Shown here: in pieces, positions 37,298 through 63,169 of the stretch
How the letters are laid out: the number at the start of each line of letters is the position of its first letter
How positions within the stretch are numbered: the stretch's first letter is position 1
Source: Eledone cirrhosa
Lineage: Eukaryota
Assembly (NCBI GenBank): GCA_964016885.1
Contig: OZ024746.1
Span: forward strand, 25,296,001-25,360,000
DNA: 64,000 nucleotides
Reading direction: 5' to 3'
Translations under genes and position numbers: made by a program
Notes under the pieces: generated by a model
Told to the model about the DNA's origin: nothing
Database searches by the model: none
Seen by the model: the letters and a program-made list of their open reading frames with translations, nothing else

Positions 37298-60357
<23,060 letters not shown>

Positions 60358-60426
60358 CTATATATCTACCCCTTCTTTTGTGCCCCTGTGGCTAATAAAG
60401 AAATCTATCTAGAAAGCAATAACTAC

Positions 60427-60434
60427 TGACGTCA
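60427..60434. promoter_or_regulatory. Perfect CRE palindrome upstream of the GDPD1 start
   Basis: TGACGTCA about 70 nt upstream of the ATG (60357). Confidence 0.45.
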
Positions 60435-61090
60435 CACACAAGGAACGACTTTCGGGGAAAGTTTTATCAGCTTTATATACCACGACACTAACTGTTTGAA
60501 GTTTTAACTTATATTTGCTTTTAAAAAGCAAATATTAATTACAATTATTTAAGTTATGCGGTCAACCGAAATTTATAGGTATAATGGATTGAATAAGTGC
60601 TGAGTATATTTGCGTGAGAAATTCAGTGATTGTTCCAGGAAAACATATACAATGGATGCCAGACAGGTGCTTGTATCTGATATTAGTTTAACAGAACTGT
60701 CACCTAAAAGGAATCATGTCGTGTAATGCTTCGTTACCTGTTACCTACCCATTTATTCCGGTGTGATTCAGCGCTTATTTATTTGTTTACTTATTTATTT
60801 TCCCAAGAAAGAAACAATGATACGCCAATAATTGGTGGGAATTAATTATCCATTGCTTTACCCCGCCTGCACTCGATTGTCTGTCGCCCCACAACATTCA
60901 GCCTAAATATATAATACTGTATATATTAACTAAAGTAGACTGAAATCGAGAACGGGGTAAATTCCTATAAGCCTTCTATATTAAAGTGAAAATTAATAAT
61001 TCAAAGTAATTCGCTTTTATTAAACGATTCTAGTAAACATACCGTTATGTATATATATATACATAATATATATATATATATATATAAAAA

Positions 61091-61390
61091 ACAAGGACGA
61101 TTGGTTACTCCTTCGTTACGTTTATTGGTTGGTGGACGCGCGTCGTCAGACCCCTTACAATGGTATGGGGTTGACGAGCTGCGAATTACAAAGTCGGGCT
61201 AGATCGATACAGATCGAACCTTGACCTGATCAGTGGCGAAACGTGCGTCACCAACCAATAAACGTAATGAAGGAGTAAACAATCGTCCTTGTCTTATTTT
61301 ACTATAATATACTCTGTCTAGCTCTACACCTCAACACAGAAGTGAACCTAAACATCGAGTGCTCACCCGGGTGAACCTACACTCCCTGAA
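61091..61390 (+). mobile_element. Penelope-like inverted pLTR pair carrying a type I hammerhead ribozyme motif
   Basis: Arms 61091-61154 and 61167-61292 inverted; consensus GGT CTGACGA GCTGC..GTGGC GAAAC GCGC GTC ACC...AATAAAC. Confidence 0.7.
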
Positions 61391-61627
61391 TATATATATA
61401 TGTGCGTGCGTATCCTCATTTAACGTTCGTTTTCCCTGCTAACAAAGGTTAGACGGGTTGAAGTTGTGTTTCAAACATCAGGCTGTTGTTGACAAGTTTC
61501 TCAGTGCTGATGCCGCAATGAAGTGCACCCAATAGACTCTGTAAAGTACGGGAAATGTGAGATGCAACCCCTGATTTGGTTTGTGTCAATTCATCCAACC
61601 TCTGCTAGCAGGGAAAACGATCATTAA

Positions 61628-61819
61628 ATGATGATGGTGGTGGTGGTAGTGGACGTCGTCATCTTGGAAGTGGAGGTGGTGGTGATGACGATGATAGTGT
61701 TAATGATGATGATGGTGATGAGGATGAGGATGATGATGATGATGGTGATGATGATGAGGATGAGGATGATGATGATGATGGTGATGATGATGAGGATGAT
61801 GATGATGATGATAATGATA
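61628..61819. repeat. (ATG/GTG/AGG)n compound microsatellite
   Basis: Direct inspection. Confidence 0.95.
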
Positions 61820-63169
61820 AACACTTTAAAGCAAATAATTTTGTATCATAGAACAATGGATGGTTTGGTAAGGAACGGGTCTAGTCATTCGTTAAGGATT
61901 ATACTACTAATACTGCACATAGCCCACCGTTTATAAAGTTACTAAAGAGTTAGGTGGTGCTGTTAAACTGGGCAATGGATTAAGTCTACCACTCAGGTTA
62001 ACTTTGCCTTTCATCATTACGGGGTCGATGAAATAAAGCACCAGTAATGCACTGGGATAATTGCTGGCCTTGTGCCAAAAGTAGAAATAATTATTAAATA
62101 TACTGGTGCTTTGCAGCATAGAGTTACGTCCCTTTACATTCTGAACAAGGGCAAGATACCAATATCGCAATTGCTATTTCCTCTTCATCACCTATTCATG
62201 TAGTGAAAGGAGCCAATAGTCAGATCAAACCAAGGAAATCATGTTTACAATGGTCTTTCCATTGCTGATATTATGTGTTGGTCACAAATCATGGTTGGAT
62301 TTGAACTTAGAACACACAGAACCAGATCAGATAGCACAAAACATTGAGTCCGACTTTTTAACAATTCCGCCGATCCACAGCCCCTATGATTGGTACTTTA
62401 TTTATCAACCCTGAACGAATGAAAATTTAAACTCAGAACACTTCATTATATATAAACTTTATATAAAAAGTGGTGGTATAGCTACATCCCTTTATGTTCT
62501 GAGTTCAAATCCAACTGAGGTTAGCTTTGCTTTTCATTCTTACGATGTCAATAAAATACCAGTAACACACTGGGGTCGATTTAATCGACTTTCTCCCTAA
62601 ATTGTTAGCCTTATGCCTAAATCAGAAACCTTTATATAAAAACTCTGATGAAATTACATCGATTTTACAAAAGTAAATAAATATCGATTGATTGATTAAA
62701 ATAGTTACAAGTCTTCTACATTGATTAATTAATCCCTTTGATACCAAGCCACCAGAAACCATCCCTGGTTCTACAATACAGAAATGTTTGTTTTAATGTG
62801 TTTATATTTATCTAAAACCCTTCCGTCATAATTTTATGTAAGAACTTTTTCTATGTTCCAAACACCATCGAGAAAGTTAGTTATATTCTTGATTATTTTC
62901 AAAATGATTTGAAAATCATAGACAGTGATTTTTTATTAGAAAGTAGGCAACAAAAGTATTTATATTCATCTTAAAACCTTTCGCCATAATTTTGTCTAAA
63001 AACCTTTGAAATTGTATTCCAAACACCATCTCAGTAATGAGAAAGAACTCCCAAGAAAAGTTGATAATATATCATTATGGACACTAACAGAAAAACCACC
63101 TTTGGGGTGGTTTTCTGCTAGTATGTGTAGTGTGCATATTGATATTATACGCAAATATATATGCTATGT

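Follow-up and report, generated by a model that had tools for sequence, protein, structure and literature searches.

A decayed inverted Penelope-like insertion in Eledone cirrhosa carries a damaged hammerhead motif, and its relatives probably keep the stems while their cores attenuate

Introduction

The closest described relatives of the element studied here are Penelope-like elements (PLEs) of the Hydra clade, including Hydra-1_Obim (Craig et al. 2021, PMC8557442). They possess a single ORF with RW(K/R) and DKT motifs, an RT and a CxCX5C linker, followed by a C-terminal GIY-YIG endonuclease with CxxC and CxH motifs, and they target (TA)n. A type I hammerhead is located near their 3′ end, and they show an inverted 5′-truncated copy and a tail at one end, a combination that is a known PLE signature (PMC8557442, PMC3846280). 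The family described below resembles the Hydra clade in all of these respects. Further marks of the clade are DKT in place of DKG and the lack of the CCHH motif found in other PLE endonucleases. It differs by its unit of ∼4.8 kb, its T/N/H/P-rich stretches and a 3′ region of 0.8–2 kb. Moreover, its stem II region comprises 60–61 nt, compared to a loop 2 of 3–10 nt in the Hydra motifs listed, and its tail 103 nt, compared to the 30–40 bp given for PLEs (PMC8557442). The hammerhead of Hydra-1_Obim has an 8-nt loop 2 and, as judged by eye, a different sequence; the Hydra cores listed all begin with CTGA (PMC8557442), unlike most copies counted in the wider group studied here.

The family also resembles the minimal PLE hammerheads (Cervera and De la Pena 2014, PMC4209133; Lunse et al. 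via PMC6765202), which belong to type I and have a short stem I and a palindromic stem III that is predicted to need a dimer, and which form families with covariation. Such hammerheads also occur in opposite orientation, 100–700 bp apart (PMC4209133, PMC6765202). Their stem II, in contrast, measures 6–8 bp, and the core variant described is U3-A8, not C4/U6 (PMC4209133). PLE pLTRs are known to carry promoters (PMC6765202).

The role of the hammerhead in PLEs has been called unclear (PMC8557442). Ribozyme mutants of the Anolis PLE still insert, and its hammerhead needs protein (PMC11167929). The behavior of Anolis Poseidon in vitro (Frangieh et al. 2024, PMC11167929) is close to what we propose for our family: two RT start sites bound the tail, both target strands are cut and extended, and insertion occurs without ribozyme cleavage. 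For Poseidon, no strand bias of the start sites was reported, and priming without target homology was described (PMC11167929). In the genomic pairs of our family, unlike Poseidon, the two arms almost always use one site each, and both sites abut TA-like words.

Two natural core variants affect the same positions of the CUGA turn as those discussed below. The U4C variant of a viroid is less active in vitro, yet infectious, and A6C in phage Bcep176 lowers activity, but this hammerhead cleaves with Mn2+; both are isolated single variants (PMC3088659, PMC7151607). Our family, unlike these, combines U4C with A6U in 1,875 exact genomic matches and in two lineages. In a pairwise scan of one type III hammerhead, single and double mutants of CUGA had low activity, with the exception of the C3-G8 swap (PMC9901934). 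Finally, retrozymes consist of head-to-tail monomers without coding sequence (PMC7229834, 10.64898/2026.07.22.740005).

Anatomy of the window palindrome

The window is the whole stretch of 64,000 nucleotides of the E. cirrhosa genome that was analyzed; it corresponds to positions 25,296,001–25,360,000 of contig OZ024746.1. Alignment to family copies identified the palindrome in it as two 5′-truncated PLE pLTR copies, placed head-to-head in (TA)n. Its features are:

61046–61085, no strand: (TA)n tract, left flank, insertion target (from the sequence; family ends abut TA repeats)
61086–61165, minus strand: left arm, an inverted, 5′-truncated pLTR copy with the short 3′ end of the family (model match, 25.9 bits)
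61167–61388, plus strand: right arm, a 5′-truncated pLTR copy from stem I to the long 3′ end of the family (99.2 bits)
61167–61171, plus strand: 5′ strand of stem I, GGGGT, pairing with 61250–61252 and then, across a 2-nt bulge, with 61255–61256
61172–61177, plus strand: core box TGACGA without C3 (CTGACGA in most of the subfamily), predicted to be inactive in the window copy
61178–61237, plus strand: stem II, 60 nt (5 bp + 50 nt + 5 bp), a 5-bp base with an extended interrupted hairpin
61238–61249, plus strand: GAAA (61238–61241), stem III ACGTGCGT (61241–61248) and the GUC triplet ending at 61249, followed by ACC
61303–61388, plus strand: tail between the short and the long 3′ end, 103 nt in the family and shortened by deletion in the window copy
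61389–61401, no strand: (TA)n tract, right flank (from the sequence)

The inverted repeat is far beyond chance: its 58-nt arms are 86% complementary, and the fold of the palindrome reached z = −14.3, with none of 200 shuffles equally good. A sequence-only reading of this locus had placed a 12-nt spacer at 61155–61166. All the letters it quoted are present, but comparison with a real family copy showed that the arms meet at 61165/61167 and that 61155–61165 is the end of the left arm. The right arm, which scored 99.2 bits with a model made from relatives that excluded the window copy, is 85% identical to the 3′ pLTR of the near-full-length copy L154.

As had been noticed before, neither arm is intact. 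In the left arm, the core CTGACGA (61149–61143, minus strand) is complete and directly abuts CGCGCGTC (61142–61135); therefore, stem II and GAA were lost by internal deletion. The core of the right arm is predicted to be dead because C3 is missing and the C3-G8 pair is important (PMC11167929, PMC9901934). The combination of CUGANGA, GAAA and UH on one strand is absent from both arms, and the hammerhead of the window copy, damaged in both, is likely inactive. Stem III of the right arm differs from the family palindrome ACGCGCGT by a single C-to-T change at 61244, where most aligned contigs of one sample have C, and its predicted self-dimer is less stable (−8.8 compared to −13.3 kcal/mol for the family palindrome). 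The 50-nt insert had been described as structured. This does not apply to the window copy (z = −0.4 and −0.7), but finds support in other members of the family: stem II alone, not significant in the window copy, folded with z ∼ −2 in two good copies and covaries between lineages (see below). Over the motif, the summed depth in contigs of one sample from three runs was ∼290,000, compared to ∼10 on the flanks, a figure that is not a copy number. Taken together, the window locus is an ordinary decayed copy, one among thousands, of a known insertion kind.

Family size and intact hammerhead motifs

A palindrome search of the 3.0-Gb genome yielded 2,075 first-look candidates, 40 of which were scored. 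One exact 18-mer of the family had 2,148 matches genome-wide, while the control had none, so the family comprises at least 2,148 copies. In the majority line of the 30 best-match loci, a single strand spells out the whole of a type I hammerhead. We then inspected 116 arms spanning the motif, a set that is biased to the subfamily of the window copy and contains a few duplicates. The core box was present in 87 arms, GAAAC..GUH in 79, and both together with stem I in 40; stem III was a perfect palindrome in 49. Since 40 of 116 arms carry the whole motif on a single strand, the two window arms are separately damaged copies and not complementing halves. The earlier proposal that a hammerhead is split over both arms must therefore be abandoned. 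What the letters of both arms spell in combination is without functional meaning, as one arm is on the plus and the other on the minus strand. The canonical CTGACGA is the majority core in the subfamily of the window copy. Among close relatives it is in the minority, which the letters of the window could not have revealed.

An Rfam scan of 59500–63000 up to E = 10 returned no hammerhead family, while the family model recognized both arms with the scores given above. As the 60-nt stem II gave no Rfam match, standard searches miss such motifs, and the numbers of PLE hammerheads are likely counted too low. Lineage D (L324–L333 and L339), the fourth, has a mostly canonical core, a GUA triplet and a stem II of 60–62 nt that differs in sequence but retains the helix layout. 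The flanks of several loci (L133, L143, L105, L114, L094, L136, L141, L149 and L056) contained other hammerhead-like motifs, unrelated in sequence and with 13–53 nt in the stem II region; those of 26–53 nt were single matches. Probably, several more PLE families carry hammerhead motifs. One locus (L106:1–1500; G000:C3:300828500–300830000) contains a tandem array of a 48-nt inverted pLTR fragment beside a whole arm. The fragment holds stem I, the core and the start of stem II, but no GAAA; judged from its sequence, this array is a satellite born from an element junction.

The parent element

The parent element has the layout pLTR-ORF-3′UTR-pLTR with ∼4.8 kb per unit and encodes an RT and, at the C-terminus, a GIY-YIG endonuclease; its 3′ region measures 0.8–2 kb. 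Some copies run upstream through an A/C-rich region into the coding frame. Of 20 loci chosen by the endonuclease-region frame alone, 17 carry the pLTR on the downstream side of this frame and oriented like it. Thus, an adjacent Penelope RT/GIY-YIG ORF, which the sequence-only reading had suggested looking for, is present upstream of the pLTR. In L154, the pLTR tail is followed by an ATG 41 nt on, RWR, ADKT, YRDD, CNCKKRGEC, IIY..YIG, CRLC, NCRH, the 3′ region and the hammerhead, and the tail likewise continues to an ORF start 41 nt on in full-length copies. In the family frames, CNCKKRDEC, CRLC and NCRH represent the motifs CxCx5C, CxxC and CxH, respectively. RWR and ADKT were found in L154, L348 and L349, ADKG in none of the seven loci scanned. 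L347 and L349 contain two direct hammerheads ∼4.8 kb apart with the frame between them. The homologue P0005 aligns with L154 over residues 9–689 of 699 with broken frames. Frames were broken in all copies examined, and the longest open ones (409 and 528 residues) belong to full-length tandem CCGTCGA copies.

The nearest Atlas clusters were HTH_animal, GIY-YIG and RVT_1 with scores of 0.90–0.93. Pfam returned a GIY-YIG match that fell short of its cut-off (E = 0.0056) and two further sub-threshold DUF matches, but no RT family in any piece and no family for six pieces of the element or homologue; PDB sequence searches were uninformative. The parent is an autonomous PLE, and its motifs would place it in the Hydra clade, whose published proteins were compared by eye. 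The unit of ∼4.8 kb, which exceeds the ‘generally <3 kb’ described, counts against this fit. An assignment to Neptune or Naiad was set aside because of DKT, RWR, CxCX5C and the C-terminal position of the endonuclease. We also considered a short SINE-like unit with an initiator just 5′ of stem I. A pattern search based on this idea gave no match, and it was rejected because copies continue further 5′ and reach into the ORF. Low-complexity stretches rich in T/N/H/P separate RT thumb and endonuclease in L154:5800–6450 and L228:1337–2920; they are absent from P0005 and recall the N-rich inserts of rotifer Penelope elements (PMC3846280).

Covariation of the helices

Covariation between lineages affects all three stems, the 60-nt stem II among them. 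Between subfamilies A and B, four pairs belonging to stems I and II change from G-C/C-G to A-U/U-A in several copies. Two pairs of stem I show two-sided G-C to A-U changes between subfamilies, and more pair types occur across lineages; in stem III, the palindrome ACGCGCGT is replaced by ACAATTGT. In 41 copies from four lineages, 16 of 28 pairs showed two-sided change, with 115 such cells compared to 44 in shuffles; these cells count related copies and not events, and the independent events are few. Pairing was kept in 83% of cells, compared to 75% in shuffles and 29–39% with slid partners. Within stem II, two-sided change affected 9 of 17 proximal and all four distal pairs, although the latter pair in only 71% of cells. 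The number of two-sided pairs did not exceed that of shuffles (63/500 for the four lineages, 190/500 for A and B). Single-strand folds favored the active shape in none of the subfamilies tested.

These results support most of what had been proposed for the palindrome, namely the pLTR of a PLE with a minimal type I hammerhead, a palindromic stem III and a long stem II, inserted as an inverted pair: the pLTR lies 3′ of the frame for RT plus GIY-YIG, and in the subfamily of the window copy the core is canonical, GAAA is present, the stems covary and signs of a DNA transposon are lacking.

Copy ends and the origin of the palindrome

Copies stop at two fixed 3′ points located 103 nt apart. Of the 37 head-to-head pairs from biased loci, which had not been chosen by tail, 35 have the short end on one arm and the long end on the other. 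We repeated this analysis on 53 ordered loci, taken from the 18-mer matches largely in order along C1, with already-sampled or widely spaced loci skipped. They contained 22 pairs (17 long and short, one short and short, four with an unclassified end), so that 17 of the 18 classifiable pairs combine both ends (p = 7e-5); the remaining 31 loci lacked an inverted partner within the 1.5 kb fetched. All six widely spaced pairs were of the long and short type as well. A TA repeat lies within 10 nt of 32/33 long ends and 23/35 short ends, and at most of the remaining short ends TA starts a few bases further on. In element sequence, TATAAT or TATATT comes after the short end, and four of five read-through copies have ATAT after the long end. 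In lineage C (L248–L272), the long end is usually followed by at least one CA unit before the TA repeats, which the RT could have added by template slippage, and the short ends run into TA.

The 5′ ends are variable, and most copies are shorter than 400 nt. Only one of 83 5′ ends falls in the bin of the cleavage site, with no pile-up; cleaved RNA as the template was rejected because the ends do not cluster at the GUC site. In 40 pairs, examined for the number of RNA templates behind a pair, rare variants were common to both arms nine times and restricted to one arm 67 times. Tails of four real copies did not fold better than shuffles (z = −0.35 to −1.18).

We propose that the GIY-YIG endonuclease nicks both strands of (TA)n, and that each nicked 3′ end would prime reverse transcription on uncleaved element RNA from its own start site. 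Priming may be helped by the TA-like words of 4–7 nt located 3′ of both start sites in the RNA. These words are short and lie in an AT-rich region, which weighs against such a role, as does the priming without homology reported for a Poseidon element (PMC11167929). Joining of the two short cDNAs at their ends would then result in a head-to-head pair.

Shift of the core among relatives

With the same flanks, exact genome-wide searches gave 1,875 matches for CCGTCGA (control 0), 1,278 for CCGAYGA (control 5) and 937 for CTGAYGA (control 4). Thus, 3,153 of 4,090 exact matches to the three core patterns are non-canonical. CCGACGA represents U4C and CCGUCGA the combination of U4C and A6U. A model made from subfamilies A and B revealed lineage C through the copy at 52447–52551 of the window; this lineage is itself abundant (2,316 candidates). 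Of 72 matches in the C1 sample, which includes seven loci chosen for wide spacing, 35 had CCGTCGA, three CTGACGA and 28 were truncated or other. A census that was not anchored on the core (125 + 43 arms) detected no other common heptamer.

In a tree from which the core was left out, and which comprised 64 of 171 arms with a limit of seven per group, deep and old copies are canonical. CCGTCGA occupies the tip of the A ladder above CCGACGA, and appears again within lineage C, set off by a branch of 0.75 (support 100/100). A single clade of all CCGTCGA copies was rejected (p-AU 5.6e-9, 42 rows). The two CCGUCGA lineages are 55–59% identical; since they have only the heptamer and two bases in common, no recombination tract is visible. 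As judged by these phylogenies, CCGUCGA arose separately in two lineages, with stems intact, in the youngest-looking subfamilies. Nearest-neighbor distances of CCGTCGA groups compared to others were 0.044 and 0.060 in A, and 0.019 and 0.064 in C, an age ranking that is rough and, for C, biased by best-match choice.

The variant subfamilies retain C3, G5, G8, A9, GAAA, U16.1 and H17; GAAAC was itself a search requirement. High-frequency change is limited to positions 4 and 6 and took the same course on both occasions. In young lineage C, A is found at 10.1 in 18/18 copies and breaks a conserved pair. The canonical subfamily of the window copy is nested among U4C relatives; therefore, changes at position 4 have gone both ways, and U4 can be recreated when the CpG there decays from C to T. 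As predicted from published mutagenesis, cores with U4C and A6U would likely be weaker at cutting. We also considered whether the core changes abolish a misfold in which the core pairs with the cleavage site. This was rejected: such pairing is predicted in canonical A, not in lineage C, and the variant cores are still predicted to be paired. A natural A6U or CCGUCGA hammerhead was not found in the literature, a provisional result, as the alignments of Lunse et al. and supplements (PMC4209133, 10.64898/2026.07.22.740005) could contain them.

Possible meaning of the palindrome and the attenuated cores

We consider it highly probable that the window palindrome is one PLE insertion, a truncated pLTR pair in (TA)n with a damaged hammerhead, and that the wider group keeps its stems while the cores attenuate. 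Two other origins were weighed. The sequence-only reading had also proposed a retrozyme-like non-coding element, that is, a non-autonomous non-LTR retrozyme spreading via a small circular RNA. A type I hammerhead in a short repeat, the small size of most copies (< 400 nt) and a preprint that derives retrozymes from pLTRs (10.64898/2026.07.22.740005) agree with this idea, but it is largely refuted and very unlikely: no head-to-tail monomer repeat occurred in the 53 ordered loci, copy ends lie off the cleavage site, copies continue into an RT-endonuclease frame, and the units of the sole array seen (L106) are 48-nt fragments devoid of GAAA. Virtually no weight remains for a miniature inverted-repeat DNA transposon (MITE) with incidental hammerhead letters. 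Although the repeat is short, palindromic, present in high copy number and flanked by TA, its center varies between copies, its arms are unequal and 31/53 ordered loci lack an inverted partner within the 1.5 kb fetched; it is refuted by the variable junctions and the linked frame, which encodes RT and GIY-YIG.

For the attenuated cores, the PLE reading would imply that cleavage is dispensable or costly for spreading, that the fold of the RNA is retained for some other purpose, probably pairing of RNA via the palindrome of stem III, or binding of the RT, and that attenuated cores are favored, or at least tolerated. It is possible, though short of probable, that CCGACGA and CCGUCGA are instead working variant cores, rescued by the length of stem II, the bulge in stem I or an element protein, with the tandem transcript still being processed. 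Consistent with this, C3, G5, G8, A9, GAAA, U16.1 and H17 are maintained and changes are confined to positions 4 and 6, the same way twice; the U4C viroid is infectious and A6C cleaves with Mn2+ (PMC3088659, PMC7151607), and the Anolis PLE hammerhead requires protein (PMC11167929). On the other hand, double mutants of the CUGA turn were not rescued in the type III ribozyme save for the C3-G8 swap (PMC9901934), and the A at 10.1 breaks a conserved pair in young lineage C (18/18). The core changes could also be unrelated to catalysis, reflecting an idle ribozyme, drift in few masters or an overlapping DNA element such as an internal promoter, an explanation we regard as tentative. Since few masters found each subfamily, two parallel changes amount to few events; furthermore, pLTR promoters are known (PMC6765202), and position 4 lies within a CpG and toggles. 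However, drift does not favor the same two substitutions, apparently in the same order, in lineages that are 55–59% identical and share the heptamer and two bases only, with no visible recombination tract, and it does not explain why the stems keep pairing. Rather doubtful at present is an extended version of the PLE reading, in which the hammerhead is losing its role as a ribozyme and becoming a structural signal: both lineages would have moved independently from CUGACGA via CCGACGA to CCGUCGA as uncut RNA inserts more, and stem III would be an RNA dimerization site that provides an RT dimer with a pair of templates. Either of the nicked (TA)n strands would then have a template of its own, primed at a separate site that matches TA, much as telomerase aligns its primer. 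If true, this would explain the head-to-head insertions with one short and one long end and also why PLEs keep hammerhead folds.

Inverted pairs of PLE hammerheads were already known; new are a stem II that is long and covaries, and a core shift that took place in parallel. The family provides a natural allelic series (canonical, U4C, and U4C with A6U) in otherwise close subfamilies of two lineages, and cleavage rate can therefore be set against copy success. This series bears on the role of the PLE hammerhead, called unclear (PMC8557442) and not needed for insertion (PMC11167929).

Surroundings of the insertion

An exon (60210–60357, minus strand) encoding MVSVILL...HISHRGG starts at 60357, so that the insertion lies 0.73 kb upstream of the start codon, in agreement with the 0.75 kb given earlier for the start of GDPD1. 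Later exons of this gene lie at ∼53865, 51334 and 44999 (minus strand). Its motifs suggest a glycerophosphodiester phosphodiesterase of the GDPD1/3 type; a Pfam and PDB sequence search gave no supporting match. An intron of the same gene contains a copy (∼52340–52700) from a second, distant lineage of the same PLE group:

52447–52551, minus strand: hammerhead region of lineage C (37.4 bits, E = 1e-10)

It has the core CCGTCGA, a 61-nt stem II and the palindrome ACAATTGT. Beside the window element, two further inverted repeats, 61412–61461/61586–61635 (82%) and 61810–61866/62756–62812 (81% complementary), probably represent other repeats.
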